Assembly: GCF_900101765.1 (NCBI RefSeq)
Contig: NZ_LT627735.1
Location: 2,331,344-2,395,343 of the forward strand
DNA from: Nonlabens sp. Hel1_33_55
Lineage (GTDB): Bacteria > Bacteroidota > Bacteroidia > Flavobacteriales > Flavobacteriaceae
Reading direction: 5' to 3'
Length of the DNA stretch: 64,000 nucleotides
The notes beneath the pieces were generated by a model, which was given only the letters and a program-made list of their open reading frames with translations, did not search any database and was not told the DNA's origin. The position numbers and the translations under genes were made by a program. How positions within the stretch are numbered: position 1 is the first letter of the stretch; each line of letters opens with the position of its first letter. Positions 25,072 through 60,884 of this stretch are shown one piece after another.

Positions 25072-25087
25072 CGCTTTCGCGAAAGCG
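25072..25087. repeat. 16-bp palindrome (perfect), intergenic between ftsX and DUF3098
   Basis: Exact match; about 20 bp upstream of the ATG at 25105. Confidence 0.95.
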
Positions 25088-25104
25088 GAATTATAAAAGA
25101 AATT

Positions 25105-25389
25105 ATGAGTAAAAAAGTCAAAAAGAACGAACCAGTCCAAAGCAACGAGCCTGATTATGTCAAGCCGGTTTTTGGATTTGTTTTTAAGAAGAAAAATTAC
25201 ACGTGGATGATCATAGGTCTTGCCGTGATTGCGTTAGGTTTTATCCTGATGATAGGTGGCGGTAGTGACGATCCCAGCGTATTCAACCCAGAGATATTCT
25301 CGTGGAGACGTATTAGACTTGCGCCAGCTTTAGTTATCATAGGTTTTGGGATTCAGGTATATGCCATCCTTCTAGATCCAGATAAATAA
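25105..25389 (+). CDS. DUF3098-family small membrane protein
   Basis: 94 aa with 2 TM segments, in the conserved position between ftsX and uppP in Bacteroidetes. Confidence 0.5.
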   Translation: MSKKVKKNEPVQSNEPDYVKPVFGFVFKKKNYTWMIIGLAVIALGFILMIGGGSDDPSVFNPEIFSWRRIRLAPALVIIGFGIQVYAILLDPDK

Positions 25390-26186
25390 TGGATGCATTT
25401 GATGCCGCCATCCTGGGCGTAGTTCAAGGTCTCACCGAATTTCTTCCTGTTTCTTCCAGTGGACATTTGGAATTGGGAAAAGCCATTTTAGGAGACACTT
25501 CTGTTCCTGAAGAAAGTTTAATGTTTACAGTGGTGCTTCATTTTGCCACTGCGTTGAGCACCATTGTTGTTTTTAGAAAAGACATTATGGAACTGCTTAA
25601 AGGGATCTTTGCGTTCCAATGGAATGAGGAAACCCAGTTTGCAGCCAAGATTGTCCTATCCATGATTCCAGCAGTATTCGTCGGTTTACTATTTGAAGAA
25701 GAATTGGAATCACTTTTTGGCGGCAATGTGCTGCTTGTTGGATTTATGTTGATCGTTACAGGCCTTTTACTTTTCCTCGCTGGCCGTGCCAAGAATACTG
25801 GTAAATCGGTAAGTTGGAAGGATGCTATCATCATAGGTGTTTCTCAAGCAATCGCAATATTACCAGGAGTTTCACGTAGCGGTGCTACTATTTCAACGTC
25901 CGTTTTGTTAGGTAATGATCGTACTAAAGCGGCTCGCTTTTCCTTTTTGATGGTAGTTCCGTTAATTCTAGGAAAAATAGCCAAAGACGTCATGAGTGGC
26001 GATTTGAATGTAGAATCTAGTTCTAGCTTGCCATTGCTTATAGGTTTTATAGCTGCATTTGTAACTGGGTTGGTGGCTTGTACGTGGATGATTTCGCTCG
26101 TGAAAAAAGCCAAGTTGCATTACTTCTCTTATTACTGTTTTGCGGTTGGGATTGTAGCAATAATTGCAGGCAGTCTCGCAGCGTAA
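25389..26186 (+). CDS. uppP: Undecaprenyl-diphosphate phosphatase
   Basis: GLTEFLPVSSSGHL plus the PGVSRSGATI motifs of BacA/UppP. Confidence 0.85.
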   Translation: MDAFDAAILGVVQGLTEFLPVSSSGHLELGKAILGDTSVPEESLMFTVVLHFATALSTIVVFRKDIMELLKGIFAFQWNEETQFAAKIVLSMIPAVFVGLLFEEELESLFGGNVLLVGFMLIVTGLLLFLAGRAKNTGKSVSWKDAIIIGVSQAIAILPGVSRSGATISTSVLLGNDRTKAARFSFLMVVPLILGKIAKDVMSGDLNVESSSSLPLLIGFIAAFVTGLVACTWMISLVKKAKLHYFSYYCFAVGIVAIIAGSLAA

Positions 26187-26218
26187 ACTTTTTATATTCA
26201 TTCCCAGAAAATCACAAA

Positions 26219-26923
26219 TTGAATCAGCAAGTTCCCGACAACCCATATTCTCCAGGTAACGTCCTACTTTTTGACAAACCTTTAAACTGGACATCGTTCC
26301 AAGTGGTTAACAAAGTTCGCTGGATGATTAAGCAGCGTTATGGATTGAAGAAAATCAAGGTAGGTCATGCGGGAACATTGGATCCGCTAGCTACGGGATT
26401 ACTGATCATTTGCACAGGAAAAAAAACCAAGAACATTGATTCCTACCAAGCCCAAAAAAAGGAATATACTGGAACTATAACATTAGGAGCCACGACACCT
26501 AGCTATGATCTAGAAACCGAGATCGATCAAAATTTTCCAACAGATCATTTAACAAAAGAATTACTTCAAAAAACCACTGAACAGTTCACTGGCGAAATCC
26601 AGCAGCGACCACCTATTTTTAGCGCCATAAAACAAGACGGCAAACGTCTGTATGAACTTGCTCGAGAGGGAAAAACTACAGAGATACCAACCAGATCGGT
26701 AACCGTAATAGATTTTGAATTGACTAGAATCAATCTGCCAGAAGTTGATTTTAGAATCAGCTGCAGTAAAGGAACCTATATTAGATCATTGGCTCATGAT
26801 TTTGGAGCAGCGCTGGACAATGGTGGTCATTTAAGCGCACTGCGCAGGACTAAGATTGGTGATTATAGCGTTGAAGATGCTATAAGTATTGAGGAGTTTG
26901 AGGAAATATTGGAGGTCAATTAA
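26219..26923 (+). CDS. truB: tRNA pseudouridine(55) synthase
   Basis: LLFDKPLNWTSFQVVNKVR...GHAGTLDPLATGLL is TruB. The ORF opens at 26078 overlapping uppP; the likely start is the TTG at 26219 (uncertain). Confidence 0.75.
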   Translation: MNQQVPDNPYSPGNVLLFDKPLNWTSFQVVNKVRWMIKQRYGLKKIKVGHAGTLDPLATGLLIICTGKKTKNIDSYQAQKKEYTGTITLGATTPSYDLETEIDQNFPTDHLTKELLQKTTEQFTGEIQQRPPIFSAIKQDGKRLYELAREGKTTEIPTRSVTVIDFELTRINLPEVDFRISCSKGTYIRSLAHDFGAALDNGGHLSALRRTKIGDYSVEDAISIEEFEEILEVN

Positions 26924-26959
26924 AAACTCAGATGCATTTCAATGCAACGATCTTCTTTT

Positions 26960-27885: not shown

Positions 27886-28644
27886 CTAGCTGGTCAATTT
27901 ACGCAGTTCTTCCATTTGTTGTTGAAGAGCATTCATTTTACTAGAAATATCGTTTGCAATCTCAGGCAAACGACGGTAGAAGACATATCTCGCGCGCCAT
28001 AGTTCTTTAATTTGTGTAAGCTCGAGTGTCACATCCTCTATTTTTTTATGATCTGCTCTCAAGATCAATTTTTTGCCTGTGATGTACATCCTGCGTAATA
28101 TGAATTGATCTGCAGTGATCGCTAGCACCATGGTACCTGCATTTAATTTGGGGATTACTGCAGTAGGAACACGCTCTGATATAACGATGTCCTTGGGAAA
28201 CAAACCTTCATCACGGCTCGTCATTTCTAAACTATCTACTGTGTAAGCAATGAATTCTTTCTCAAGATTGATAGGCAGACTCAATTGAGGCATGTCTTCA
28301 ATAAACTGGTCGTTCTCTCTGTATTGAAGATATTCACTAGCATTATTAGGAGTAATACAGGGCACACAGGCAAATTTTTCTCTTTCTAAATCATCAGGAG
28401 AGATCGTCAGTTCATCATTAAATCTTAGCAATTGATTCACCGTTAATTCTGCAGTGAGCATATGGTCAATAGAAATGCTAAAATAATTAGCAATCATAAT
28501 GATTGTTTCAATTTTTGGTTCACTACGTCCTTCTTCATAAGCGCCTAATGTACCACGCTTTAAATTAAACAAGTCGGCAAATGCTTGCTGTGACAAACCC
28601 TTAACTCCACGTATCTTTTTGATGTTTTTTCCGAAAAAGGACAT
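27886..28644 (-). CDS. XRE-family helix-turn-helix transcriptional regulator with C-terminal domain
   Basis: N-terminal Cro/C1 HTH (IRGVKGLSQQAFADLFNLKRGTLGAYEEG) plus a C-terminal domain of about 180 aa. Divergent from the ybjN-pspA operon. Confidence 0.65.
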   Translation of the reverse strand: MSFFGKNIKKIRGVKGLSQQAFADLFNLKRGTLGAYEEGRSEPKIETIIMIANYFSISIDHMLTAELTVNQLLRFNDELTISPDDLEREKFACVPCITPNNASEYLQYRENDQFIEDMPQLSLPINLEKEFIAYTVDSLEMTSRDEGLFPKDIVISERVPTAVIPKLNAGTMVLAITADQFILRRMYITGKKLILRADHKKIEDVTLELTQIKELWRARYVFYRRLPEIANDISSKMNALQQQMEELRKLTS

Positions 28645-28804
28645 TATTTTGCTAATTTTATTTGCAATTAAAACTTTTTGCTTATATTTACACTAACAAT
28701 ATTAGCAATATCAATTCATAATTGCTAATTTTTTGAACATTAATACCTCTAGTATTTATGATTAACATTCAAATTAGAACGATGCAGTAGGCCGTTGCAG
28801 AGTT

Positions 28805-28820
28805 CGCTTTCGCGAAAGCG
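28805..28820. repeat. 16-bp palindrome (perfect, extended TTCGCTTTCGCGAAAGCGAAA), in the divergent XRE / ybjN-pspA promoter region
   Basis: Exact match; centred between the divergent starts at 28644 and 28942. Confidence 0.95.
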
Positions 28821-28941
28821 AAATAACCATCAACCTTAAAACAACTATTATGACGACGTTTATTCTTCTCTATATTCAGGAATGCTTAACTATTTTCCTG
28901 TGATCACGAAGCAGCTTTTTGTAATATTAAACCTCTAAAAA

Positions 28942-29343
28942 ATGCCAATGGACAATTATTTTAATACCATTAAGGACTTCCTACAAGAACTTAATTTTGA
29001 GATTACCAGAGAAAATCGTGCTGACGGCATTCTTGTCATTGAAAAAGAAAGTGTAGGTGTAAAGAACCTGATATTAGGGATTGCACCTCCTATTTTAATC
29101 ATGGAGCAATATATTTTCAAAATCAATAACAAAAATGAAGAGGTTTTTAAAAGCCTACTTCAAAAAAATAGAGATATCATTCACGGCGCTTTTGTACTGG
29201 ATGAGAGTGGATCTAAAGTCATCTTTAGAGACACCCTGCAAATTGAGAACATCGACTTGAATGAACTAGAAGGTACACTTAATTCCTTAAGCTTGCTTTT
29301 AAGTGAATACTCTGACCACATTATTAAATTTTCTAAATACTAA
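28942..29343 (+). CDS. YbjN-domain protein (putative sensory transduction regulator/chaperone-like)
   Basis: 133 aa acidic alpha/beta protein, commonly paired with PspA in Bacteroidetes. Confidence 0.5.
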   Translation: MPMDNYFNTIKDFLQELNFEITRENRADGILVIEKESVGVKNLILGIAPPILIMEQYIFKINNKNEEVFKSLLQKNRDIIHGAFVLDESGSKVIFRDTLQIENIDLNELEGTLNSLSLLLSEYSDHIIKFSKY

Positions 29344-29355
29344 AAAAACAATATC

Positions 29356-30069
29356 ATGAACATATTCAAACGACTTTTCAAAATAGGACAGGCAGAAGCA
29401 AACGCAGCTGTCAACAACATGGAAGACCCAATCAAAATGACCGAACAAGGAATTCTTGATATGAAGGAAGACCTGAATAAAAGCGTAGAGGCAATGGCTC
29501 AAGTAAAAGCACTAGCTATACGCTCCAAAAATGACAAGGAAGAACATGCTGCTACCGCAAAGGATTATGAGCAAAAGGCTATAATTATTCTAAAGAAAGC
29601 CCATAGTGGCGAGATGGATACTACAGCAGCAGATCGACTTGCTAAAGAAGCGCTAGCCAAAAAAGAGGCAGCACAACTTAATGTAGAGCGTGCCCAGAAG
29701 GAAAGTGAGAAATTTGAGAATAACGTGGCTCAATTGAAGTCAACTATTGACACGATCAAATCTAATATCACCAACTGGGAGAATGAATTAAAGACATTGA
29801 AAGCGCGTGTCAAAGTAAGCGATGCAACCAAAAATGTCAATAAACAAATGGCAGAACTTGACAGCACTGGCACTGTGAGCATGCTTGAGCGTATGAAGGA
29901 AAAGGTAGCTCAAGACGAAGCACTTGCTGAAGCCTACAGCGACATGGCTGGATCAAGAACAAGTGTTGATGACGAAATCGACGCTGCGGCAGACACCAAA
30001 CAAGCTAAAGTGGATGACGACCTTGCCAAATTAAAAGCACAATTGGGCATCAAGAAGGATGAAGCATAA
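29356..30069 (+). CDS. pspA: PspA/IM30 family protein (phage shock protein A homolog)
   Basis: MNIFKRLFKIGQAEANAAVNNMEDPIKMTEQGILDM matches the PspA N-terminus (MGIFSRF...NALLDKAEDPQKL). It is a 237-aa coiled-coil protein. Confidence 0.8.
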   Translation: MNIFKRLFKIGQAEANAAVNNMEDPIKMTEQGILDMKEDLNKSVEAMAQVKALAIRSKNDKEEHAATAKDYEQKAIIILKKAHSGEMDTTAADRLAKEALAKKEAAQLNVERAQKESEKFENNVAQLKSTIDTIKSNITNWENELKTLKARVKVSDATKNVNKQMAELDSTGTVSMLERMKEKVAQDEALAEAYSDMAGSRTSVDDEIDAAADTKQAKVDDDLAKLKAQLGIKKDEA

Positions 30070-30139
30070 AATGCTTTTGAAGGGATTGGCAACAATGTCA
30101 GTCTAAGCGTGTAAAAACCTAACCATTAACAACCAACCA

Positions 30140-30853
30140 TTGGAAAACTATTTCAACATTCTATTTTCTGAAGTCAACATCACGCTTACCGTGCTGCTGC
30201 TCATCCTTATTGTTTATTGGATTTTTACCATGATCAGCGGTATTGATTTTGACCTGGATGTAGATGTGGACATCGATGTTGATGTGGATGCAGACCTAGA
30301 CATGGATTTTGACAGCATTGAAGGTGGCAACCTTGATTTTGAAGATGTTGCCAATGCAGAAGTGGATCGCGAGCACGTGGTCAACAAACGAACTCGACAG
30401 CTCAAATGGTGGCAAATCATATTGATTTACTTCAATTTTGTGGGTTTGCCGTTCATGTTCACCTTCACGTTTTGGATTTTCTTATGGTGGCTCATGAGCG
30501 TTTTAACAACAGCAGTAACAGGAAGCTATGATAATGTTTTTGGCTTCATTATCGTGCTGGCAGCTCTCATTCCAGCGCTATTTGTGACAAAAATCGTAAC
30601 CACACCATTTAAAGCGTTTTTCAAAAACTTGAATAAAGATGGCGACAAGGCAGTAGACTTTCTAGGCCGCAGCGCTATCTTGATGTCCTCCATTTCAGGA
30701 GATAAGTTGGGCAATGCAGAAGTGCTTGCCGATGGAAATCCCATGAGTATTTACGTCAAGTCGTTGGATGGATCAGAATTACGCTTTCGTGAAAGCGTGC
30801 TCATCATCAAGCAATCGGACGATAAAAATTATTTTTTAGTGAGTAAGGCGTAA
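30140..30853 (+). CDS. NfeD-like (YqiJ/DUF1449) membrane protein with C-terminal OB-fold
   Basis: N-terminal TM segment, an acidic DVDVDID repeat, further TM segments, and a C-terminal beta-barrel (GRSAILMSSISGDKLGNAEVLADGNPMSIYVKS). It sits immediately upstream of the flotillin gene, as in yqiJ-yqiK. Confidence 0.6.
   Translation: MENYFNILFSEVNITLTVLLLILIVYWIFTMISGIDFDLDVDVDIDVDVDADLDMDFDSIEGGNLDFEDVANAEVDREHVVNKRTRQLKWWQIILIYFNFVGLPFMFTFTFWIFLWWLMSVLTTAVTGSYDNVFGFIIVLAALIPALFVTKIVTTPFKAFFKNLNKDGDKAVDFLGRSAILMSSISGDKLGNAEVLADGNPMSIYVKSLDGSELRFRESVLIIKQSDDKNYFLVSKA
30782..30797. repeat. 16-bp palindrome, 15/16 copy in the NfeD CDS (RFRES)
   Basis: CGCTTTCGTGAAAGCG. Confidence 0.8.
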
Positions 30854-30861
30854 TCCATAAA

Positions 30862-30888
30862 GATGTCAGTCTGAGCTTGTCGAAGACG
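30862..30888 (+). repeat. Solo arm of the MITE-like repeat family (GATGTCAGTCTGAGCTTGTCGAAGACG)
   Basis: Exact family consensus, directly after the NfeD stop codon. Confidence 0.7.
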
Positions 30889-30964
30889 TGTCACTAAATA
30901 AAAAGATTAATAAATAATAACAACCGCAGAAACCATTCTGCACAACCATTAATAAAACCAAACT

Positions 30965-33037
30965 ATGGACGGAATTTTAGGAATTATTGTAACAGGACTG
31001 GGAATTCTCCTTTTCCTAGTCATCGTTTACTTCGCGATCATCGCGATGTTTTACAAAAAAGTACATCAAGGACAGGCGCTGGTGCGTACTGGTTTTGGAG
31101 GTACTAAAGTCGCGACAGACAAAGGTTTGTATGTAGTGCCGGTTTTCCACCGTGTGGAGACCATGGATATTTCAGTTAAGAAAATCCAGATTGAGCGTAT
31201 GGGCGTGGAAGGATTGATATGTAAGGATAACATGCGAGCCGATATCAAAGTAGCCTTTTTTGTACGCGTTAATAATGAGGTTGAATACATCAAGAAAGTA
31301 GCACAGACTATAGGTGTGCAGCGCGCTTCTCGCATTGAAACGCTAGAAGATCTTTTTGAAGCCAAATTCTCTGAAGCGCTCAAAACTGTAGGTAAGAAAT
31401 TCCAATTCATTGATTTGTACGAGGCTCGTCGGGAATTTCGCGATGAGATTGTGGATATCATTGGAACAGACTTGAATGGTTACACGCTGGAAGACTGTGC
31501 GATTGACTTTCTAGAGCAAACAAGTGTTGAATTTTTAAAGAAAGACAACATTCTGGATGCAGAAGGTATCAAGAAGATTACCGAATTGACCGCTGCGCAA
31601 AATATCAAGGCCAACTTGATCACTCGTGATGAAGAAAAAACAATTCGCAAGCAAGATGTTGAGGCTCGGGAAGCAATTCTCGAACTGGACAAACAACTCG
31701 CCGAAAAAGAAGAGCAACAAAAACGTGAGATTGCTAACATCAAATCTCGCGAAGACGCAGAAACTCTCAAAGTCGCCGAAGAAGAAAGACTCAAGTCTGA
31801 AACGGCACGCATAGCAACTGAGGAAAAAGTGAAAGTTGCCGAAGAAAACATGCAACGTCAGATTATTGTTGCAGAGAAAAACAAGCAACGTACCGATGCT
31901 GTAGAAACAGAACGCGTAGAAAAAGATCGACTATTAGAAGCAACAGAACGGGAAAGAGTCGTGACTCTGGCACAAATCGAGAAAGAGAAAGTAGTTGAAG
32001 TTGAGAAAAAGAACATCCAGGATGTCATTAGAGATCGCGTGGTTCTTGAAAAAGGAGTAGTTCAGGAGCAGGAAAACATGAAAGACATTGAAGCTTTCAA
32101 ATCTGCCGATCGTGCTAAACAAGTAGCCATTACAAATGCTGAGGCAAAAGCACAAGACGACTTGATCCGTATCACAATTGCTGCAGAGGCCTCTAAACAA
32201 GCAGCTGTTCAAAAAGCAGAGGAAATCAATATCGAAGCTCTTGCTCATAAAGAAGCCAGTGAAAAAGAAGCTGATGCACGTAAAATTCTTGCAGAAGCTA
32301 CCGCTAAAGAAGAAGCAACCGTTGGTTTATCTGAAGCACAAGTAATGCATGCAAAAGCTGAGGCTAGTGAACGTCAAGGAATTGTTGACGCACTGATCAT
32401 CCAGAAAAAAGCTGAAGCAGAGGCAAGCGGAATCACCGCAAAAGCGGCTGCAAAACGTCAAGATGGACTTGCTGAAGCCGAGGTTATCAAAGAAAAAGCC
32501 CTTGCAGATGCTGCTGGAATTGAAGAGAAAGCCAATGCGATGAAGAAACTCGATGGTGTAGGTAAAGATCACGAAGAGTTCAAACTACGTCTGGACAAAG
32601 AACTTCAAGTAGACCTGGCGCAAATCAACATCCAGAAAGATATTGCAGATGCACAAGCACAAGTGATAGGAGATGCATTGAGAGCGGCTAAGATTGATAT
32701 CGTTGGTGGTGAGACCATGTTCTTTGAACAAATCATCGGTCAGATCACTAAAGCCAAAGGTTATGATAGACTCGTGAATCATTCAGAAACGGTTACTGAA
32801 GTAAAAGATGCGATTCTAGGAAGTGGTGACGTGAAAGGGAATTTGCTTGATAAAGTCAAGGACTTTGCAGACCGCTACAACATCAGTTCTGAAGACATTA
32901 AAAACCTAACGATTGCCAATCTATTGATTGATTTACAGGCAAGAGTTGACAATAATGAAGACCAGAACATCTTGACCAACCTTATGAATCTGGCTAAAGG
33001 AATGGGGTTGTCCAATAAGAAGTTGGGTAATATCTAG
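30965..33037 (+). CDS. Flotillin-family SPFH-domain protein (YqiK-like)
   Basis: N-terminal TM segment, an SPFH/band-7 domain (QALVRTGFGGTKV...KVAFFVRV) and a long EA-rich coiled coil; 690 aa. Confidence 0.8.
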   Translation: MDGILGIIVTGLGILLFLVIVYFAIIAMFYKKVHQGQALVRTGFGGTKVATDKGLYVVPVFHRVETMDISVKKIQIERMGVEGLICKDNMRADIKVAFFVRVNNEVEYIKKVAQTIGVQRASRIETLEDLFEAKFSEALKTVGKKFQFIDLYEARREFRDEIVDIIGTDLNGYTLEDCAIDFLEQTSVEFLKKDNILDAEGIKKITELTAAQNIKANLITRDEEKTIRKQDVEAREAILELDKQLAEKEEQQKREIANIKSREDAETLKVAEEERLKSETARIATEEKVKVAEENMQRQIIVAEKNKQRTDAVETERVEKDRLLEATERERVVTLAQIEKEKVVEVEKKNIQDVIRDRVVLEKGVVQEQENMKDIEAFKSADRAKQVAITNAEAKAQDDLIRITIAAEASKQAAVQKAEEINIEALAHKEASEKEADARKILAEATAKEEATVGLSEAQVMHAKAEASERQGIVDALIIQKKAEAEASGITAKAAAKRQDGLAEAEVIKEKALADAAGIEEKANAMKKLDGVGKDHEEFKLRLDKELQVDLAQINIQKDIADAQAQVIGDALRAAKIDIVGGETMFFEQIIGQITKAKGYDRLVNHSETVTEVKDAILGSGDVKGNLLDKVKDFADRYNISSEDIKNLTIANLLIDLQARVDNNEDQNILTNLMNLAKGMGLSNKKLGNI

Positions 33038-33174
33038 GTTGATTTCTAGGGCGCTACACGGTTCTTTCTTTAGAAAGAATCGTGTCGGGCTATCCGCTAT
33101 ATCTTTTAAGCCTTATAGCCTTAAAAGGATACCGCTGCTATCCCTAGCGCGAGAAGCCAAAATATAATATTGAC

Positions 33175-33199
33175 TGTCAGTCTGAGCTTGTCGAAGACG
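33175..33199 (+). repeat. Solo arm of the MITE-like repeat family, upstream flank of the GIY-YIG gene
   Basis: TGTCAGTCTGAGCTTGTCGAAGACG. Confidence 0.7.
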
Positions 33200-33223
33200 G
33201 AATCATTAATCACTAAACCATCT

Positions 33224-33544
33224 ATGAAATTCTATTTTGTCTACATCTTAAAATGCAGCGATGATAGTTTTTACGCAGGTTTTACTTCTAATCTTGACCA
33301 AAGACTTGCAGAACATCAAATGGGTAAATCCGCTGGATATACATCTAAAAGATTACCCTTAGAATTGGTCTGGTTTGAGCAGTTTTTGGATTATCCAGAA
33401 CAAGCAATTCAATGGGAAAAGCGAATCAAAGGCTGGTCAAGGAGAAAGAAACAGGCATTAATCGATGGAAATTGGGACAATTTGATTTTGTTTTCAAAAA
33501 ACTACGCTGAGTATGGAAATAAGATTAAAAGAGTTGAAGATTGA
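33224..33544 (+). CDS. GIY-YIG nuclease family protein (YhbQ/UPF0213-like)
   Basis: FYFVYILKCSDDSFYAGFTSNLDQRLAEHQMG is a GIY-YIG motif. The protein is about 106 aa and is flanked on both sides by repeat-family copies. Confidence 0.7.
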   Translation: MKFYFVYILKCSDDSFYAGFTSNLDQRLAEHQMGKSAGYTSKRLPLELVWFEQFLDYPEQAIQWEKRIKGWSRRKKQALIDGNWDNLILFSKNYAEYGNKIKRVED

Positions 33545-33556
33545 TTCAAATTGAAT

Positions 33557-33660
33557 TGTCAGTCTGAGCTACACCTGTGCTGAGTTTATCGAAGTATCGA
33601 AGACGTTGTAGAAACTAATAAAGATGGTGCAGTCGCACTTCGACAAGCTCAGTGTGACAC
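33557..33660. repeat. Complete MITE-like element (inverted arm pair, left arm with internal duplication)
   Basis: Left arm TGTCAGTCTGAGC[TACACCTGTGCTGAGTTTATCGAAGTA]TCGAAGACG. Right arm GTCGCACTTCGACAAGCTCAGTGTGACAC is the reverse complement of the left arm. Confidence 0.7.
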
Positions 33661-33691
33661 AAACATTGAAAAATGAATATTGATACAACGA

Positions 33692-36800: not shown

Positions 36801-38875
36801 TTTTAAGCGTTTTATTACACAAACATCATGATCTAGGCTTGCTCACATATGATCCAAACACGAGAGCAAAAGCGCAGTTTTTTTGGAACAGTTTAGAGCA
36901 GTCGCAACGTTCCAACCTCAACCGTATTTTAAAAAGTGCTGGCGAGGTGTTATCTGTTTTTCCAGATAGTAAAGAGTATGATTTTATTGTGGAGGAATTG
37001 GCTGATGAGATTTTTAAAGCCAATAGTGCAAACAAGACCGACTTCGACAAGCTCAGTCTGACAAAGGAAAAAACACCAAGCGATGTCACGTTGAGCCTGT
37101 CGAAACGGAGTTTAGATTCTATAAAGCATAATTCCAACTCGACTGCTGGAAACGAACACCAAATCGCTGAATATCTATTCAATGAACTAAAAGACAACGA
37201 TCATTTTACTGTAAGTACGAGTGCTATTCAGTTAAAGGAAGCTTTTGAGAAAAAAATAAAATCTCAAAATGCCGATTTGAAATTCAAGAAAAGTCTAGAA
37301 GCCTGTGAGGACGAGAAGTCTAAAGTAGAACTGGTGAGACATTGGGTTTCTGCTTTCGCGAAAGCGGAATCAAAACAAGCTTTATTGCCCTATACAAACG
37401 AATGTGTTGCTAACATCCTCTACGGAAAACTGACTGCCGATAAAACGGTAGCAATATCGCCTGTGGAAACAATTACAGGATTAAAAGGATCGCATGGAAC
37501 GATCAACGAAAGTGAATTTGTATTCAATTACCACGAGTTTGTGAACGTTTTGGAGCATTTTACTACTGTAAAAGTGCCAGCTTATGAAACCTTTAGAAAA
37601 GCAAAACATCAAGTAACTGAAGAGTTAAAAGAATCGTTGCGATTGGAAGAATTCAAGCCACGAGTGCTAAGCTCATTTGTGCGTAACAAATTGATCGACC
37701 AAGTATATTTCCCATTGATAGGCGATAATCTGGCCAAACAATTAGGAACCGTAGGCGATACGAAACGTACCGACCGAATGGGATTGTTGCTCTTGATATC
37801 ACCACCAGGTTATGGTAAAACCACCTTGATGGAATACATGGCTAACCGGTTGGGCTTGATTTTTATGAAAATCAACGGTCCAGCTATAGGTCACGATATT
37901 ACCTCTGTAGATCCAGAAGCTGCTTCTAATGCGGCAACTCGTGAAGAACTCAAAAAGCTGAATCTTGCTTTTGAAATGGGTGATAACGTGATGTTATATC
38001 TGGATGATATCCAGCACTGTAATCCCGAGTTTTTACAAAAGTTCATCAGTCTGTCTGATGGAACACGTAAGATTGAAGGAGTTTATAATGGCAAGCCTAA
38101 AACCTATGATCTACGTAGTAAGAAATTCTGCGTGATCATGGCTGGTAATCCTTATACAGAAAGCGGAGATAAATTCCAGATTCCAGACATGCTTGCCAAC
38201 CGTGCAGATATTTATAATCTTGGAGATATCATAGGCGATACGGCTCATTTGTTTGAACTAAGTCTGGTTGAAAATGCATTAACGAGCAATCCAGTATTAC
38301 AACAGTTAAGTAACAAGCACTTTGATGATGTATATGCCTTAATCGATCGAGTTCAAAATGGCGCCAGCGATAACGAACTCAAAGGAAACCACAGCAACCA
38401 AGAAATAGCCGACTATGTCGCTGTCCTAGAAAAGGTATTGAAGATACGGGATACGGTTCTTAAAGTAAATGAAGCGTACATCGCCAGCGCAGGAATGGAA
38501 GATGCTTATCGTACGGAGCCTTCTTTCAAACTACAAGGTTCTTATCGTGATATGAATAAACTGGTCGCTAAAGTTGTTCCTATCATGGATGATAAAGAGT
38601 TACAAACTCTCCTATCATCACACTATGAAAGTGAATCACAAACCTTAACCAGCGCTGCAGAAGCAAACTTGTTGAAATACAAAGAACTGGTAAGCACCAT
38701 AAAACCAAAAGAGCAAGAACGATGGACAGCCATCAAAGAAATTTTTGCAAAAAATAACAAGCTGAACGGTCTAGGTGGGCAAAATCAAATGTCTCAAGTA
38801 TTGAATCAGATGATGGATTTTACTGAAAATCTAGAGGGAATAAAAGAGGTGTTGAAGAAAGGGTTAGCTAAGTAA
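33863..38875 (+). CDS. Giant multidomain protein (1670 aa) with C-terminal AAA+ ATPase module (MoxR/AAA_5-like)
   Basis: Continuous ORF. Walker A LLLLISPPGYGKTTL, Walker B VMLYLDDIQHCNPE, sensor-1 FCVIMAGNPYT and arginine ANRADIYNL at about aa 1300-1450. The N-terminal 1250 aa comprise a coiled coil, a beta-rich region and long helical arrays. It contains an in-frame copy of the repeat family at 37041-37107. Confidence 0.6.
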   Translation: MADKELKDTTQLDSGTYEIIQSRLLKQKNDLQQRLHALNEERKKVFGSLETRLIANDRVNTENNCIARDIVTIGKNSIFGYNVHFGLRTEINLSDVFSIYEFDREGKDGDALRFRDLPAGRQEAGSSLELIEDPIFQTDFENLYKYYRNTIFSKFAIIGNYLHMVFQLSDSVTDIKTFKWLIKENELQYVDNRSEHEYRFPAQYGFQWKEAGRDNQRAGKHGHVSILDKVFVETIGGDLTIKVEDNTDDGQGIYREDVEHRDQTLDDGQYRYADLGNLIVLEIKPFQEEPRHFVYNHKIKEVEKIDSIAQAAVLLPDEQGIIFPSGYYLQTGEYNVFPSDAGKLKFQQKIASPNGEDHLYVFYNAAQGLYVLMSYNVIDQSVKTPIVCNGFTILEQGELCYFRNGDEQTKHHMMQIWQTPYLKGDIVPSEHQDTMLYKIGNKDIVKAMAEANELLTLLNKEDSYGGLYDDIARASKDILDAYYWLPEEETKQINLPLGEINKASNAAIDEFEKVKQMRKQAAAETKDISKKAETLFSKIKSTSFKSINDFVELLTQLRSLRGEAIGLYEIRYVDTDFIKGIEDQIVEQNEVISRRAVTFLLDDKALAPYHEAVAEKQKALDATKKVIEIKNLEKEVNQIAEDLELLIEIVSNLDIEDTSHSTKIIENISLIFATINQVKAAIKNKVKIVGKKEAQADFAAQLKLIDQSIINYLDIANTPEKCDEFLTKISIQLEELEGKFADYDEYITEIIAKREEVYAAFDNRKSSLIEARNKKAISYQNAAERIIKGVQKRAQSLDSATEINGYFASDLMINKVRDIIAQLKDLEDAGKAEAIETALKVAREDALRKLKDKNELYEDGDNIIKLGKHKFGVNKQQLDLTIVFKDNALFYHLTGTDFYQELHNEILTQSKGIWNQELVSENSEVYRAAYLAYSIFKTGDKEALRMMSPTDLLLRVQEIASGNYSGGYVKGVHDHDTAQILSVLLHKHHDLGLLTYDPNTRAKAQFFWNSLEQSQRSNLNRILKSAGEVLSVFPDSKEYDFIVEELADEIFKANSANKTDFDKLSLTKEKTPSDVTLSLSKRSLDSIKHNSNSTAGNEHQIAEYLFNELKDNDHFTVSTSAIQLKEAFEKKIKSQNADLKFKKSLEACEDEKSKVELVRHWVSAFAKAESKQALLPYTNECVANILYGKLTADKTVAISPVETITGLKGSHGTINESEFVFNYHEFVNVLEHFTTVKVPAYETFRKAKHQVTEELKESLRLEEFKPRVLSSFVRNKLIDQVYFPLIGDNLAKQLGTVGDTKRTDRMGLLLLISPPGYGKTTLMEYMANRLGLIFMKINGPAIGHDITSVDPEAASNAATREELKKLNLAFEMGDNVMLYLDDIQHCNPEFLQKFISLSDGTRKIEGVYNGKPKTYDLRSKKFCVIMAGNPYTESGDKFQIPDMLANRADIYNLGDIIGDTAHLFELSLVENALTSNPVLQQLSNKHFDDVYALIDRVQNGASDNELKGNHSNQEIADYVAVLEKVLKIRDTVLKVNEAYIASAGMEDAYRTEPSFKLQGSYRDMNKLVAKVVPIMDDKELQTLLSSHYESESQTLTSAAEANLLKYKELVSTIKPKEQERWTAIKEIFAKNNKLNGLGGQNQMSQVLNQMMDFTENLEGIKEVLKKGLAK
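37041..37107. repeat. MITE-like element (arm pair in opposite arrangement) embedded in-frame in the giant ORF
   Basis: CTTCGACAAGCTCAGTCTGACA ... GATGTCACGTTGAGCCTGTCGAAACGG; translated as ...DFDKLSLTKEKTPSDVTLSLSKRS... Confidence 0.65.
37351..37366. repeat. 16-bp palindrome, 15/16 copy in the giant ORF (AFAKA)
   Basis: TGCTTTCGCGAAAGCG. Confidence 0.8.
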
Positions 38876-42291: not shown

Positions 42292-42307
42292 CGCTTTCGC
42301 GAAAGCG
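42292..42307. repeat. 16-bp palindrome (perfect), intergenic inside the metal ABC operon
   Basis: Exact match. Confidence 0.95.
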
Positions 42308-44671: not shown

Positions 44672-44687
44672 CGCTTTCGCGAAAGCG
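44672..44687. repeat. 16-bp palindrome (perfect), between convergent genes
   Basis: Exact match. Confidence 0.95.
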
Positions 44688-47197: not shown

Positions 47198-47213
47198 CGC
47201 TTTCGCGAAAGCG
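47198..47213. repeat. 16-bp palindrome (perfect), in the divergent HK / AKR promoter region
   Basis: Exact match; about 30 bp upstream of the AKR ATG. Confidence 0.95.
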
Positions 47214-49994: not shown

Positions 49995-50010
49995 CGCTTT
50001 CGCGAAAGCG
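49995..50010. repeat. 16-bp palindrome (perfect), upstream of the desaturase gene
   Basis: Exact match; about 45 bp upstream of the start at 49952 (minus strand). Confidence 0.95.
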
Positions 50011-53087: not shown

Positions 53088-53103
53088 CGCTTTCGCGAAA
53101 GCG
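53088..53103. repeat. 16-bp palindrome (perfect), in the divergent greA / lipoprotein promoter region
   Basis: Exact match. Confidence 0.95.
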
Positions 53104-53850: not shown

Positions 53851-56025
53851 TTAGAAAGTTAATGTTACTCCAGTCAAAAAGTTAATTCCAGCCTGTGGGA
53901 ACAAGAAACTACCAAATCCTGGGAAAACATAACCGTTGGAAATGTATTCTTCATCCAGAATATTATTGACCAGCAAACTCAGGGTAACTTCCTTGACCAG
54001 ATTGTTCGGCTTCCAGATGTATTGTGCGTTGAAATCGTTGACAAAATAACTATCCAATCTTGCCGTATCACTATCCGTATTATCCAATTGCTGCTCGCCC
54101 ACATATTTAGACAATAGCGATACTTCAAAATTATCACGAATGCTATAGGTGATCGCATTACCAGCAACAACTGATGGTGAGTAAGCAATTTCAGTATCGC
54201 CTAGATTGTTGGGCGTACCATTATCGTCTATTATAAAGTCTTGGTTTCGGTTTTGGGAAATTGCAAAATTGGGTTGCAGGAATAACTTGTCGGTTATTCT
54301 GAATCTTGCATCGATCTCAAGTCCCAACCGATAGCTATTACCACTATTGGCTCTCAATGGCACACCTTGATTATCAATTTCACCAGTCAACACCAGTTGA
54401 TCCTTGTAATCCATATAATAAAGGTTGACATTGACGTTCATGGAAGGTTTGGCAAAGCGGTAGCCCAATTCATAATCGATCAAATCCTCTGCTTCTGGAG
54501 AGCCGTTCTGGAAATCTGCACGGCTGGGTTCTCTTTGTGCGCGAGCGACACTACCGTACAGCTGGTTACTTGGGTTGAACCTGTAAACAGCACCTGCTTT
54601 TGGGTTGAAAAAATCGTAACGCTCATCAGTTAAAAATTGGTCTACTGCAAAATCACTTCCCGTAGTGTTGTAATCCACACGACGTTGCTGCAAGTCAATG
54701 AATGCTGTTAGTTCAGAGGATATTTTGAAGTTCGCTTTCGCGAAAGCGTTAAAATCATTCTTCACGCTATTACCGGTATAAAATCGCTGCAACGGTTCGT
54801 TGAGCTGTATAAAACTGCCCGCGATAATCTCACCATAATGCTCACCGTCATACTGATTGATTCCAGCACCAAAACTTGCGTCTATCCAGTCATTCTTGTA
54901 GTTAAGGTTAGTCACAACACCATAAAACTCATTGTCCAACCAGCGGCGTGTCTCCAGATCACTACTGGTCACCGTCATTCCATTCGCCTGAAAAGCATCC
55001 AACCCATAGACGTCAAATTGGGTTCTTCCAGCAGCATCAAAGAAAAAATCACTCTCTTGATATTCCTGGAAGTAGCCACGTCCTTTTGTGTAATGCAAAG
55101 TGGCACTGGCACTCCAGTTGTTATTGAATCTATGGCTCAATAGCAACTGGTAGTGATCTTGATTGTAGTTATCTACCTGCGCGTCATAGAATTGAGTGTT
55201 ACCATTTTCATCTATGTACAATCCTGCGCTATTGAAGGTGCGATCAGTTTCGAGCGTAACTGGATCAATACCATAATATGCTTGATACGTGCGTTCCTGA
55301 CCTCCAAAGATGATGGCTTTGACCAATGTTTTATCACCTACATAAGAACCGGAAACATAATAGGATTTCAGGTCGCTATCTGCGCGATCGATGTAACCAT
55401 CGCTATAGATCTGTGAAGCGCGGCCGTTAAATTCCCAGCGGTCATCCAGCAACCCTGTGGTGAACTGGATGTTATGCTTGCGTGAGTTAAAAGAGCCAAT
55501 GGAATTGGCCACTTTAACCTCAGCTTCATCGCTGTAGTCCGTGGTTTTTATGTTGAGACTTGCGCCAAAAGCACCGCTACCATTAGTACTGGTACCAACG
55601 CCGCGTTGCAGCTGCACACTTTCTACACTGCTGGAAAAGTCAGGTAAATTGACCCAGAAGGTTCCCTGGGATTCTGCATCATTGTAGGGAACACCGTTGA
55701 GTGTCACGTTGACTCTTGTGGCATCACTACCTCGCACGCGTATTCCCGTATAACCTATTCCAGCACCGGCATCACTTGTAGTAACCACGTTAGGCAAATA
55801 ATTGAGTAAAATAGGTAGGTCCTGACCTAGATTTCTCGACTTGAGATCCTCTGCCGTGACGTTAGAAAAGGTTACTGGATTTTCTGTAGTTACTCGTGTG
55901 GCTTTGAGAACAATTTGGTTGAGCTTTTCAGCTTTAGTGGTGTCTTGTTCCTGCGCGTTTTGTGCTGTTACCGTGCTGGATAGTGTTAATGCAACGGCAA
56001 TTACAGCGACTGATAAATGTTTCAT
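53851..56025 (-). CDS. TonB-dependent receptor (probable thiamine/thiamine-precursor outer membrane transporter)
   Basis: Signal peptide, a plug domain and a 22-strand barrel with C-terminal ...GVTLTF. Preceded by a TPP riboswitch. Confidence 0.85.
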   Translation of the reverse strand: MKHLSVAVIAVALTLSSTVTAQNAQEQDTTKAEKLNQIVLKATRVTTENPVTFSNVTAEDLKSRNLGQDLPILLNYLPNVVTTSDAGAGIGYTGIRVRGSDATRVNVTLNGVPYNDAESQGTFWVNLPDFSSSVESVQLQRGVGTSTNGSGAFGASLNIKTTDYSDEAEVKVANSIGSFNSRKHNIQFTTGLLDDRWEFNGRASQIYSDGYIDRADSDLKSYYVSGSYVGDKTLVKAIIFGGQERTYQAYYGIDPVTLETDRTFNSAGLYIDENGNTQFYDAQVDNYNQDHYQLLLSHRFNNNWSASATLHYTKGRGYFQEYQESDFFFDAAGRTQFDVYGLDAFQANGMTVTSSDLETRRWLDNEFYGVVTNLNYKNDWIDASFGAGINQYDGEHYGEIIAGSFIQLNEPLQRFYTGNSVKNDFNAFAKANFKISSELTAFIDLQQRRVDYNTTGSDFAVDQFLTDERYDFFNPKAGAVYRFNPSNQLYGSVARAQREPSRADFQNGSPEAEDLIDYELGYRFAKPSMNVNVNLYYMDYKDQLVLTGEIDNQGVPLRANSGNSYRLGLEIDARFRITDKLFLQPNFAISQNRNQDFIIDDNGTPNNLGDTEIAYSPSVVAGNAITYSIRDNFEVSLLSKYVGEQQLDNTDSDTARLDSYFVNDFNAQYIWKPNNLVKEVTLSLLVNNILDEEYISNGYVFPGFGSFLFPQAGINFLTGVTLTF
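54733..54748. repeat. 16-bp palindrome (perfect), in the TonB receptor CDS (AFAKA)
   Basis: Exact match. Confidence 0.95.
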
Positions 56026-56139: not shown

Positions 56140-56245
56140 AATCGGTTTGTCGCATCAAATCCCTTGGCAGCATTACCTGCCCAGGTTCCTCGGGTATAAT
56201 CTCAGCCTTCGATTAAAAAAGCACCCCTTGAGATGGAGCAAAAGT
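56140..56245 (-). promoter_or_regulatory. TPP (thiamine pyrophosphate, THI-box) riboswitch
   Basis: The minus-strand RNA AAGGGGUGC...GGCUGAGAUUAUACCCGAGGAACCUGGGCAGGUAAUGCUGCCAAGGGA carries the conserved THI-box elements GGGGUGC / CUGAGA / UACCC / ACCUG / GUAAUGC / AGGGA. Confidence 0.8.
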
Positions 56246-56299
56246 AGTGTGTAAAATCAAAACCTAAATCAAAATGAAAAATAATTTTGAGGAATGTTT

Positions 56300-56315
56300 C
56301 GCTTTCGCGAAAGCG
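56300..56315. repeat. 16-bp palindrome (perfect), in the divergent TPP-riboswitch / PLDc_N promoter region
   Basis: Exact match. Confidence 0.95.
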
Positions 56316-56428
56316 AAATAGAGACATTCCATAAGTGAAAGGAATCTAGCAGGTTAAATGTTGTGGCAAACGTTAATTGCTGCTGTAGATATGAGCCGTG
56401 GTGTAATTTTACAGCAACCGAATAAATT

Positions 56429-58490: not shown

Positions 58491-58628
58491 ATGAAAACGC
58501 CAAACTTCGAAGAAACTAAAGGAAAACACCCAATACCTCACGCAAAAGGAATCGCTAAAGACGACAACCTACAGCCAAATTCCATGGAAAAAGGAGAAGC
58601 TGCAAAAAACAGTAGCGAGGAAGAGTAG
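58491..58628 (+). CDS. Possible small acidic/basic protein (45 aa)
   Basis: Below the ORF-track size cutoff. ATG with an A-rich upstream region, followed by a strong terminator hairpin. Encodes MKTPNFEETKGKHPIPHAKGIAKDDNLQPNSMEKGEAAKNSSEEE. Confidence 0.25.
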   Translation: MKTPNFEETKGKHPIPHAKGIAKDDNLQPNSMEKGEAAKNSSEEE

Positions 58629-58654
58629 GTTTTAGAATAATTCTACTGAAAAAT

Positions 58655-58694
58655 CAAAAGGTGCGGAATTAATTCCGCACCTTTTGATTTTTAT
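58655..58694. terminator. Bidirectional rho-independent terminator
   Basis: AAAAGGTGCGGAATTAATTCCGCACCTTTTGATTTTT (10-bp perfect stem). Confidence 0.75.
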
Positions 58695-58698
58695 TATG

Positions 58699-60786
58699 TT
58701 ACGCTATCGTTGCACCATTCACAATCGTATCATCTGGATTGACAAAAACTAGTTTTCCGTCGGGATCCTCGGCAAGTAGGATCATTCCTTGAGATTCTAC
58801 GCCCATCAACTTTCTAGGTGCAAGGTTTGCTAGGACGGTTACTTTTCTGCCTACCAATTCTTCAGCCGTGTAGTGTTTTGCGATTCCTGAAACGATAGTA
58901 CGCTTATCAATACCTGTATCGACTGTCATTACCATCAATTTGTTGGACTTGGGCAATTTTTCTGCAGTGAGGATTTCTGCGACGCGTAGGTCCATTTTCA
59001 TGAAATCGTCGTAGTTGGTTTCTTCTTTCTGTGGCATAAGATTAGGTGTTGTGGATTTGTTGGCAGCTTTGGTAGCTTCTAGTTTGGCGAGCTGCGCTTC
59101 TATTTGTTCGTCTTCGATTTTAGAGAAGAGCAATTCGGCTGGATTGATTTTGTAGCCGTGGTGCAACAGCTCTTGTTTTTCAGCAATATCATTCCATTCG
59201 ATCTTGACCAGATCTGCACGCAATCTGGCAGCAGGATTTGAAGCGATGTTAAGCATGTTTTGTAATTTCTTAGCCGTATGAGGCAAGAACGGTTCTGCAA
59301 GAACGGCAAGAGCTGCAGCAATTTGCAAGCCGACGAACATGATCGTTTTTACACGTTCTGGATCGGTTTTGATGATTTTCCAAGGCTCTTCATCGGCTAG
59401 GTATTTGTTTCCTAATCGTGCAAGGTTCATGAACTCGTTGGCGCTTTCGCGAAAGCGATATCTCTCCAAACTACTTTCTATACTGGCTGGAAAAGCATTG
59501 ACCGCATCCAGTGTTTCTTGATCAATGGCGGTAAATGCGCCAGGTTCTGGCACTACTCCATCGTAATATTTATGGGTCAATACCAGCGCCCGATTGATGA
59601 AATTACCAAGGATGGCCACCAACTCATTGTTGTTGCGCGCCTGGAAATCTTTCCAAGTGAAATTGTTGTCCTTAGTTTCCGGTGAGTTTGCCGTTAATAC
59701 ATAGCGCAACACATCTTGTTGTCCCGGGAAATCCTCGAGGTATTCATGCAACCAAACCGCCCAATTGCGCGAGGTCGAAATTTTATCGTCTTCTAGATTC
59801 AAGAATTCGTTTGCTGGAACATTGTCCGGCAAAATGAACTCGCCATGCGCCTTCAACATCGCAGGGAAAATGATGCAATGAAAAACGATGTTGTCCTTGC
59901 CTATAAAATGAAGCAGTTTAGTGTCGTCCTTCTTCCAGTAATCCTCCCAATTCTTGCCTTCTCGATCTGCCCATTCCTTAGTGGACGATATATAACCGAT
60001 GGGTGCGTCGAACCAAACGTAAAGCACTTTACCATCGGCTCCTTCAACGGGAACAGGAATTCCCCAATCCAGATCGCGCGTTACTGCGCGAGGTTTGAGA
60101 CCGTCAGTCACCCAACCTTTTACTTGGCCCAACACGTTAGTTTTCCAGTCGGCAGCATGGCCTTCTACTATCCATTCATTCAACCAGTCGCTGTATTGAT
60201 CCAGCGGCAGGAACCAGTGTTTGGTCTCGCGCAATTCTGGAACATTGCCGGTGATGGCGCTTTTTGGCTCTATTAAATCAGTAGCGTTGTGGGACGTACC
60301 GCAGCGCTCGCATTGATCGCCGTATGATTCTGGGTTGCCGCATTTAGGACAAGTTCCTACCACAAAACGGTCGGCTAGAAATTGGTTGGCTTCTGCATCA
60401 TACAGCTGCTCTGTAACTTGTTCTATAAACTTGCCGTCGTCATATAATTTGATGAAAAAGGCACTTGCAGTTTCGTGGTGAATAGGCGCACTGGTACGGC
60501 TGTAATTGTCAAACGAAATTCCAAATTCTTCAAAAGAATCACCAATAATTTTATGGTAGCGATCCACAATTTCTTGTGGCGATACACCTTCTTTTTTGGC
60601 CTTTAAAGTAATGGGCACACCATGCTCATCACTACCGCAAATAAAGGCTACATCGTTGCCTTTCAACCGCTGGTAACGCGCATAGATATCTGCTGGGACG
60701 TAAACTCCAGCCAGGTGACCTATGTGCACAGGTCCATTTGTATACGGCAATGCCGCTGTAATCGTATATCGTTGTTGATCGCTCAT
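58699..60786 (-). CDS. metG: Methionine--tRNA ligase
   Basis: HIGH ([14 protein letters not shown]), a zinc knuckle (CPKCGNP..C..CG), KMSKS-equivalent region, and a C-terminal EMAP/tRNA-binding domain. The ORF is open to 60897; the likely start is the Met at 60786 ([15 protein letters not shown]). Confidence 0.9.
59442..59457. repeat. 16-bp palindrome (perfect), in the metG CDS (RFRES)
   Basis: Exact match. Confidence 0.95.
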
Positions 60787-60868
60787 GAAATCTCTAAAAG
60801 GCCACAAATTTACAATATCTGTGGCAGCTTTAATGTTCTGTTGGGAGCAGTAATGAATGTAATGAATT

Positions 60869-60884
60869 AGCTTTCGCGAAAGCG
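60869..60884. repeat. 16-bp palindrome, 15/16 copy in the divergent metG / lipoprotein promoter region
   Basis: AGCTTTCGCGAAAGCG. Confidence 0.8.

Follow-up and report, generated by a model that had tools for sequence, protein, structure and literature searches.

A perfect palindrome scattered through Nonlabens chromosomes: probable genomic signature motif and candidate self-DNA tag

Introduction

Why should one perfect palindrome recur at 20 places in 64 kb of a bacterial chromosome, inside genes as well as between them? The question is raised by a 64,000-nucleotide stretch of Nonlabens sp. Hel1_33_55 (Flavobacteriaceae; contig NZ_LT627735.1, positions 2,331,344 to 2,395,343), which we refer to as the window and in which the palindrome TTTCGCGAAA is repeated far beyond expectation. 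An original prediction, made from the sequence alone, took the intergenic copies to be operators of a global transcription factor and singled out the copy between an XRE regulator and the PspA operon as a candidate operator for that regulator. Upon comparison of the window with loci from related genomes, metagenomes and viral collections, the underlying observation was partly confirmed and its interpretation partly supported. We find that the element is very probably a chromosome-wide signature motif and not an operator. The best reading is a genomic signature palindrome, (C)GCTTTCGCGAAAGC(G), resembling highly iterated palindrome 1 (HIP1) of cyanobacteria and the uptake signal sequences (USS) and DNA uptake sequences (DUS) of Pasteurellaceae and Neisseriaceae, respectively. 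The full statement, in which this signature motif is favored as a tag for the uptake or recombination of self DNA, is given a probability of about 50%.

In-depth study of hyper-abundant signature motifs has been limited to these few lineages, and the function of HIP1 stayed unknown through ~20 years of study (PMC5861425). The searchable literature contained no report of the motif described here, and nothing on iterated palindromes in Bacteroidetes or on Nonlabens palindromes. It would be a second, independent palindromic example, found in cultivable marine Flavobacteriaceae.

Copy number and consensus of the palindrome

Exact copies of TTTCGCGAAA number 20 in the window, against 0.11 expected from dinucleotide-preserving shuffles (largest shuffle count 2), an over-representation of ~180-fold that upholds the claim of a hugely over-represented motif. 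The 22 copies originally counted are corrected to these 20 and one relic, while each of the eight coordinates quoted for individual copies proved correct, marking where an exact CGCTTTCGCGAAAGCG-type copy begins. The 14-mer GCTTTCGCGAAAGC is present in 18 of the 20 copies and the 16-mer CGCTTTCGCGAAAGCG in 14. The 12-bp core is invariant across all palindrome copies; every occurrence of TTCGCGAA in the window is part of the palindrome, and the sole internal one-mismatch variant is the relic GCTTTCGTGAAAGC at 30783. An extended consensus of 20-22 bp had also been described, and this exists in weak form: just two copies, at 28803 and 56298, have the 20-mer TTCGCTTTCGCGAAAGCGAA without a mismatch, four further copies match it with one mismatch, and arm positions 9-11 from the palindrome center are T in 50-70% of arms. 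A dyad of such size and perfection fits a putative dimeric reader of double-stranded DNA. No palindrome copy had an Rfam match.

The motif is a trait of the Nonlabens clade

The metG gene of the window is 88% identical to that of a Flavobacteriales metagenome-assembled genome (MAG; locus L001) and ~80% identical to Nonlabens homologs, and the closest named relative of the window organism is Nonlabens agnitus. Loci L001-L006 together hold 24 copies in 108 kb, and the Nonlabens loci L247 (N. agnitus) and L250-L252 hold 5-6 copies per 20.8 kb each. No copy was found in the corresponding Tenacibaculum (L248) or Aquimarina (L249) loci, and 74 loci of other Flavobacteriaceae genera, totaling 1.47 Mb, yielded five 10-mers and one 14-mer. 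A suspected motif family in Leeuwenhoekiella was rejected, as the matches in L017 were half-matches in ordinary coding sequence plus a chance 14-mer in metG. The motif is thus a trait of the Nonlabens clade, present in every Nonlabens locus examined at ~1 copy per 3-4 kb, and this density implies roughly 1000 copies per genome.

Copies occur in genes and in all kinds of gaps

Gene calls based on open reading frames (ORFs) and checked against Pfam placed 11-12 of the 20 window copies in non-coding DNA, in agreement with the eleven predicted, and 8-9 in coding sequence. Non-coding DNA makes up ~8.9% of the window, so the palindrome is ~14-fold enriched per base there. The gene labels assigned earlier held for the FtsX-DUF3098, XRE-CesT/YbjN-PspA, ABC ATPase-ABC-3 permease and histidine kinase-aldo-keto reductase gaps as well as for the desaturase, GreA, PLDc_N and metG, and it is also true that the motif-flanked genes serve no single pathway. 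The individual copies are listed in Table 1.

For a broader view, 266 non-redundant copies were assembled from the window, its relatives, and metagenome or viral loci. In this set, 138 copies are coding (frames 72/39/27), 99 non-coding and 29 ambiguous. The coding copies occupy all three frames, reading as RFRES, AFAKA or LSRK, and within the window ORFs most of them lie in linkers, at N-termini or in a signal peptide. Copies per kb amount to 0.156 in coding DNA and to 0.90, 0.71 and 0.66 in divergent, tandem and convergent gaps, respectively, figures valid only relative to one another, given that the metagenome and viral loci were picked for carrying the motif. Stop codons showed no meaningful phasing with the motif.

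An operator of a global dimeric transcription factor acting at many promoters would account for a motif that is 5-14 times denser per base in non-coding DNA and that is present in 5-6 of the ~10 divergent gaps of the window, but it does not predict that about half of all copies (8-9 of 20 in the window, 138 of 266 overall) are intragenic in three frames, nor that convergent gaps are about as dense as divergent ones. The non-coding copies do lie roughly where they had been described relative to start codons (18-160 nt upstream, compared to the 20-100 bp claimed); however, the same copies sit 4-75 nt after stop codons in tandem gaps, and the copy at 44673-44686 occupies a 27-bp convergent gap without a promoter. 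A positional hint comes from three window promoters (metG, the thiamine pyrophosphate (TPP)/TonB gene and UbiA) in which the motif center is 61-71 nt upstream of a strict TAnnTTTG -7 box; at metG this position is kept in four taxa. A fixed spacing to Bacteroidetes -7 boxes was nevertheless rejected, as the hint disappeared among 128 non-coding copies once orthologs were discounted: a small peak 60-69 nt from TAnnTTTG consists mostly of orthologous metG and TPP promoters, and the distribution is otherwise flat. Relative to the riboswitch aptamer of the TPP/TonB gap, the copy is on the 5' side in the window and L001 and on the 3' side in L004 (Nonlabens BBFL7) and L006, indicating recurrent gain in a permissive region, not a conserved operator position. 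Finally, the core is invariant in all copies examined, unlike the sites of a regulon, and the copy density implies roughly 1000 sites per genome. The motif excess holds for any non-coding DNA, including gaps unable to hold a promoter, and the intergenic enrichment reflects weaker constraint between genes, not promoter function. We therefore regard the operator explanation as highly improbable.

The TPP riboswitch itself, at 56143-56238(-) upstream of the TonB-dependent receptor gene, was missed by the default scan. It scores 46.2 bits (E 9.6e-8), below the Rfam gathering score of 54.3, and is conserved in L001, L004 and L006.

Table 1. Copies of the palindrome in the 64-kb window, with their setting and orthologous occurrences.
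Coordinates	Form	Setting	Genes and position	Peptide	Orthologous copies and remarks
1263..1276	GCTTTCGCGAAAGG	coding	HPPK-dNK fusion ORF 907-1968(+), inter-domain linker, ~residue 120	SLSRK	
2429..2442		probably coding	SpoU methylase ORF 1952-2497(-), N-terminal codons 19-23; 64 nt past PorP/SprF stop	RFRES	
4179..4192		coding	Nfu/NifU ORF 3745-4653(+)	SLSRK	
10763..10776		coding	signal peptide of outer-membrane efflux protein 9370-10818(-)	AFAKA	
15519..15532		non-coding	minus-strand tandem gap; 47 nt past DUF420 stop, 246 nt before ABC ATPase start		
20591..20604	GCTTTCGCGAAAGT	non-coding	leuS-UbiA gap		N. agnitus L247:18931, Nonlabens L250:18907
23492..23505		coding	leuS 20915-24037(-)	FRES	conserved at L247:15677, L250:16094
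25073..25086		non-coding	ftsX-DUF3098 gap; 73 nt past stop, 18 nt before start		
28806..28819	inside perfect 20-mer 28803-28822	non-coding	divergent XRE-CesT/YbjN-PspA gap		
30783..30796	relic GCTTTCGTGAAAGC, C>T in CGCG core	coding	ORF 30140-30853(+)		
37352..37365		coding	DUF3686/AAA protein 33863-38875(+)	AFAKA	conserved in L247, L250, L251, L252
40042..40055		coding	ORF 39900-40640(+)	RFRES	
42293..42306		non-coding	within metal ABC operon; 4 nt past ATPase stop, 89 nt before permease start		
44673..44686		non-coding	fills 27-bp convergent gap between ABC-3 permease and enoyl-CoA hydratase		promoter impossible
47199..47212		non-coding	divergent histidine kinase-aldo-keto reductase gap; ~29 nt before likely aldo-keto reductase start 47242		
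49996..50009		non-coding	minus-strand tandem gap; 24 nt past acyltransferase stop, 43 nt before desaturase start		Nonlabens BBFL7 (L004:20572)
53089..53102		non-coding	divergent greA-142-aa ORF gap		kept in ~97% identical strains (L081-L084); absent in BBFL7
54734..54747		coding	TonB-dependent receptor 53851-56025(-)	AFAKA	conserved in L001
56301..56314	inside perfect 20-mer 56298-56317	non-coding	65 nt 5' of TPP riboswitch, minus strand		only copy with a long extended stem
59443..59456		coding	metG 58699-60897(-)	RFRES	~35 other Flavobacteriaceae read RFREA
60870..60883		non-coding	divergent metG-205-aa ORF gap; 64 nt upstream of metG -7 box TAAATTTG		position kept in L001, L002, L004

The XRE-PspA gap contains a different conserved dyad

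For the operator explanation, a concrete candidate had been named in the divergent gap between the XRE regulator (27886-28644) and the PspA operon. This regulator is 86% identical to that of N. agnitus and has full-length orthologs of 58-67% identity in Aquimarina and Tenacibaculum, which keep the XRE-CesT-PspA-Band7-DUF3686 cluster and have 0 motif copies in 20 kb. Among Nonlabens, three other genomes lack the motif in this gap despite carrying 5-6 copies per 20 kb elsewhere, and the palindrome is found there only in the window organism and N. agnitus. An inverted repeat, ATTAGCAA-N13-TTGCTAAT at 28701-28729, is conserved upstream of the XRE orthologs in Nonlabens, Tenacibaculum and Aquimarina, and a third half-site, AAATTAGCAAAATA at 28645-28658, adjoins the XRE start and is conserved in all genera compared. 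The regulator and its operon are thus conserved without the palindrome and with another dyad, and the proposal that the palindrome is the XRE operator is not supported. Judging by its conservation, ATTAGCAA-N13-TTGCTAAT is the likely candidate operator of the XRE-CesT/YbjN-PspA divergon.

The cluster itself (window 27886-38875; L247-L252) extends across Flavobacteriaceae genera in the order XRE, divergent CesT/YbjN, PspA, a 237-aa ORF, SPFH/Band7 (690 aa), a GIY-YIG or putAbiC gene, and a DUF3686/DUF7902/AAA protein of ~1650 aa; it may be an envelope-stress or defense module. A Flavo-1 RNA (Rfam RF01705, 56 bits) was found at 33079-33162(-), directly upstream of and divergent from the small GIY-YIG nuclease gene at 33170-33544(+). 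L250 and L251 likewise have GIY-YIG at this point of the cluster, and N. agnitus has putAbiC instead.

Copies arise by substitution and persist at orthologous sites

Orthologous genes with and without the motif indicate how copies come about. In metG, the stretch RYRFREA, written with AGA and GCx codons, is found in ~35 Flavobacteriaceae, while the carriers (the window organism, L001 and one Nonlabens) have CGC TTT CGC GAA AGC, or RFRES, such that gain of the motif amounted to several substitutions and an Ala to Ser change. The TonB receptor reads AFAKA in the window and L001, whereas L004 and L006 use different codons there and read VFSKA or VFAKA. Wherever orthologs differ in having the motif, the difference consists of base substitutions, in several cases C>T or G>A within the CGCG core, and the relic at 30783 is a decayed ortholog of copies that are intact at L247:7757 and L250:7537. 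Spread by insertion of a unit was considered and rejected, as no indel of the motif was seen in any orthologous comparison. Copies are gained and lost by point substitution, and this can force amino-acid changes.

Once present, copies are retained. All four of the window copies that could be compared with L001 are intact there, where 4.5% of aligned 14-mers are perfectly conserved, and four of five are intact in N. agnitus (L247), against 12% of aligned 14-mers. Different Nonlabens species share the copies in leuS, in the DUF3686/AAA gene and upstream of UbiA. The motif persists at orthologous sites far beyond neutral expectation.

Two independent insertions were found to interrupt the palindrome at one and the same point, TTTCGCG^AAA. 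At ~14060-14100 of L247, orthologous to window 25073-25086, the insert is a hairpin-like sequence of 20 bp, CCTGCCTGTCGGCAGACAGG; in L006, a 24-bp in-frame insertion affects the coding copy that is intact at L003:9596, L004:6398 and L005:7492. Breakage or cleavage may take place at the palindrome center.

These observations bear on a further explanation, in which the palindrome would be a mobile element of the repetitive extragenic palindromic (REP) or miniature inverted-repeat transposable element (MITE) kind, spread by a transposase such as a REP-associated tyrosine transposase (RAYT), or else an RNA hairpin serving as a terminator or mRNA stabilizer. The REP elements and bacterial interspersed mosaic elements (BIMEs) of Enterobacteria and Pseudomonas are likewise short palindromic repeats that number in the hundreds and often follow directly after genes, and the window has many extragenic copies, several just past stop codons and one filling a convergent gap; insertions at the palindrome center might also be read in this light. 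REPs, however, are palindromic only imperfectly, have a conserved 5' tetranucleotide, are strictly extragenic, clustered or paired and spread as units, whereas half of the Nonlabens copies are intragenic, made by substitution at conserved codons with length unchanged, and mutually repelling, with no clusters or doublets. No RAYT (Y1 transposase) gene was found within the 64-kb window.

A hairpin role fares no better. The core RNA hairpin is weak (~-6.7 kcal/mol), and five of six copies fold no better than shuffled sequences (z -0.25 to -1.5 for most), with the copy at 56301..56314 standing out for a stem that is long and reaches -23 kcal/mol. Extended hairpins or compensatory arms were ruled out as a general feature, as complementarity beyond position 8-11 is what base composition predicts. 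The stem is followed by A's and not by a U-run, just two of nine copies passed a lax terminator scan, and five of the window copies lie in divergent gaps, at odds with intrinsic termination; the genuine terminators of the window look otherwise, being long GC hairpins that have T-runs. Given the weak hairpin, the composition-level arms and the A-rich 3' flank, the motif is more likely recognized as DNA than through an RNA, and we consider a mobile repeat or RNA hairpin the least probable of the alternatives weighed here.

Copies are evenly spaced and have skewed flanks

Over ~18-20 nt 5' of the core on either strand, the sequence is GT-rich and poor in C (2-10%, compared to ~18% further out), and the 3' flank mirrors this in being AC-rich and G-poor, so that the core and flanks span ~50 bp. 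This skewed flank of 20-25 nt is seen in the 138 coding as well as the 99 non-coding copies. No second discrete motif was found in the flanks, only general GT-richness.

No two copies in the window are closer than 1166 bp (P=2.5e-4 for a uniform null; 8e-4 for a null allowing one copy per intergenic region). Across ~290 copies, the density of a second copy is 0.015-0.027/kb within 750 bp and 0.2-0.3/kb beyond 3 kb, a roughly tenfold difference. Copies are therefore spaced more evenly than chance and avoid one another within ~1 kb.

Even spacing with exclusion below 1 kb is a feature that a site for an abundant nucleoid-associated or chromosome-organizing protein would be expected to have. Such a protein (Noc-, SlmA- or ParB-like, or marking condensin loading or a domain boundary) would bind as a homodimer to the 14-16-bp dyad and its skewed flanks, with sites selected for even coverage. 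The perfect invariant core, the presence of sites both within and between genes, their conservation across species and a ~50-bp flank preference fitting a protein footprint agree with this. The parS and Noc-binding sites of the ParB family are themselves 14-16-bp perfect palindromes with TTTC...GAAA half-sites, read by dimers and found also inside genes. The separation of the half-sites differs, being 2 bp in Nonlabens (TTTC-GC-GAAA) and 4 bp (N4) in parS and the Noc-binding site, and the roughly 1000 sites in Nonlabens compare with ~10-70, making the motif ~20 times as dense as the known site sets of Noc, SlmA or MatP. A role in chromosome or nucleoid structure has been inferred for HIP1 (PMC5861425), yet no candidate protein was found for the Nonlabens motif. 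The absence of the motif from lytic phages, described below, is compatible with a nucleoid-protein site but does not discriminate it from a self-DNA tag. This is the main rival explanation, although an unlikely one in our estimate; the operator and a pure by-product of DNA repair are less likely.

Lytic phages lack the motif

The lytic Nonlabens phages P12024S and P12024L (L253/L254; JQ823122/JQ823123) contain 0 copies at <=2 mismatches, where ~11 would be expected at host density. P12024S also avoids CGCG (9 observed vs 44 expected), GGCC (0 vs 35) and CCGG (2 vs 34), and TCGCGA is absent from it; both phages encode DNA methyltransferases. Avoidance of CGCG points indirectly to restriction-modification of the center of the motif by the host, and the set of avoided words suggests that the host of P12024S and P12024L may have several 4-bp restriction systems. 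A methylation signature was also sought in the window itself and rejected: with the motif masked, 4-mer and 6-mer palindrome frequencies were unremarkable.

If the motif center is methylated, the palindrome could be no more than a functionless by-product, as in Elhai's model for HIP1, where a CGCG or TCGCGA methyltransferase and short-patch mismatch repair would ratchet near-matches into exact copies. The phage avoidance described above points to host restriction-modification, decayed copies often have C>T or G>A changes in CGCG, and an association of HIP with methyltransferases is documented (PMC4390886). A specificity of 14-16 bp with a 20-nt flank skew is, however, far beyond known methyltransferase or Vsr sites; a pure repair bias does not predict even spacing or exclusion at short range; TCGCGA shows no excess once the motif is set aside (22 observed vs 17.4 expected); and for HIP1 itself, conservation favored selection over replenishment (PMC5861425). 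We judge this explanation improbable.

Comparison with known signature motifs

The closest parallel is HIP1 (GCGATCGC), also a perfect GC-cored palindrome that is clade-specific, over-represented by orders of magnitude, found throughout ORFs and spacers, generated by substitution, retained at orthologous sites (both within and between ORFs) and non-randomly spaced. Its core probably coincides with a resident restriction or methylation site, as may that of the Nonlabens palindrome, and its function, long unknown, is now tied to transformation and methylation (PMC5861425; PMC4390886; bioRxiv 10.1101/2024.09.10.611283; 10.64898/2026.06.24.733823). The Nonlabens palindrome differs in phylum and sequence, in length (14-16 bp vs 8 bp), in density (~1 per 3 kb, where HIP1 reaches >1 per gene), and in its strong excess in non-coding DNA; the ~20-nt flank skew and the exclusion below 1 kb are undescribed for HIP1. 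It is a HIP1 analog, not a member, having another sequence and a Flavobacteriaceae host.

With USS and DUS the motif shares a strictly conserved core with weaker extended flanks, a copy number of hundreds to thousands at ~1 per 1-3 kb, scarcity in foreign DNA, and genus- or family-specific "dialects". USS and DUS copies in ORFs likewise use frames giving tolerable peptides while being in excess in non-coding DNA, and their even spacing has been discussed (PMC1939737).

A candidate tag for self DNA

Taken together, these data favor a signature motif that may act as a self tag. We propose that a highly specific and probably dimeric factor, acting chromosome-wide, would recognize the palindrome in double-stranded DNA, that the motif would thereby promote the uptake or recombination of conspecific DNA, and that its CGCG center would probably be methylated. 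Biased fixation (molecular drive) would spread the copies and selection would maintain them, a scheme already put forward for USS/DUS and, in recent work, for HIP1. The self-tag reading is favored by the absence of the motif from lytic phages and sister genera; by its USS-like flanks, frame usage and non-coding excess and a spacing at the scale of recombination tracts; and by the recent HIP1 results together with the competence of Riemerella columbina, which is naturally transformable and prefers its own DNA (PMC7965970). The function in uptake or recombination, taken by itself, is offered tentatively and is rather doubtful at present. More speculative still is a specific version, in which the motif would be the first perfect-dyad signal for self-recognition in uptake or recombination, in a Bacteroidota genus, with a dimeric methylation-dependent receptor, molecular drive, and GT-rich 5' flanks on both strands that favor strand exchange.

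Several observations weigh against a self tag. Known uptake sequences are asymmetric and not palindromic, while the Nonlabens motif is a perfect dyad, and to our knowledge an uptake receptor has not been described in Bacteroidota. The window contained no gene for a reader protein or methyltransferase and no competence gene. Some IMG/VR contigs with phage genes (a baseplate hub; an integrase and tape measure) carry 3-6 copies; these contigs are presumably long-resident temperate elements. The GT/AC flank skew is without an established explanation under any model. The three promoters with the motif 61-71 nt from a -7 box, and the position kept at metG, indicate that there may be a local promoter-proximal effect at some sites, and the choice of the metagenome and viral loci for carrying the motif limits what their densities can say. 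Flavobacterium johnsoniae, moreover, was found not to be competent (PMC7965970).

The combination of a long invariant core, a flank signature, short-range exclusion, effects on protein sequence and a sharp boundary between Nonlabens and its sister genera is unusual. The boundary makes this a clean comparative system in which the reader protein could be sought by phylogenetic profiling, and one that allows roles in uptake, recombination, methylation-linked repair and nucleoid structure to be told apart. The motif may also serve as a taxonomic marker for binning Nonlabens-type contigs, with motif-free stretches flagging recently acquired DNA, and it cautions annotators that such dyads are not to be equated with operators or terminators.

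Additional observations

Other short repeats were encountered in the loci compared. In Leeuwenhoekiella, L036 and L050 contain the repeat TCGAGCGCAGTCGA(GA) three times per 22 kb, which may be a REP-like hairpin family. The locally repeated 12-mers AACAATTTTTCC (10 copies) and AGATACGTTGCAAT (5 copies), from L073 (Tenacibaculum) and L065 (Flavobacterium MAG), may represent tandem or CRISPR-like arrays. Within the window, HPPK (folate) and deoxynucleoside kinase domains are fused in a single ORF at 907-1968(+). The most AT-rich stretch of the window (4658-7394; GC 0.32-0.35) holds three ORFs without a Pfam match and lies inside one of the longest motif-free gaps (4181 to 10765); it may be recently acquired DNA.

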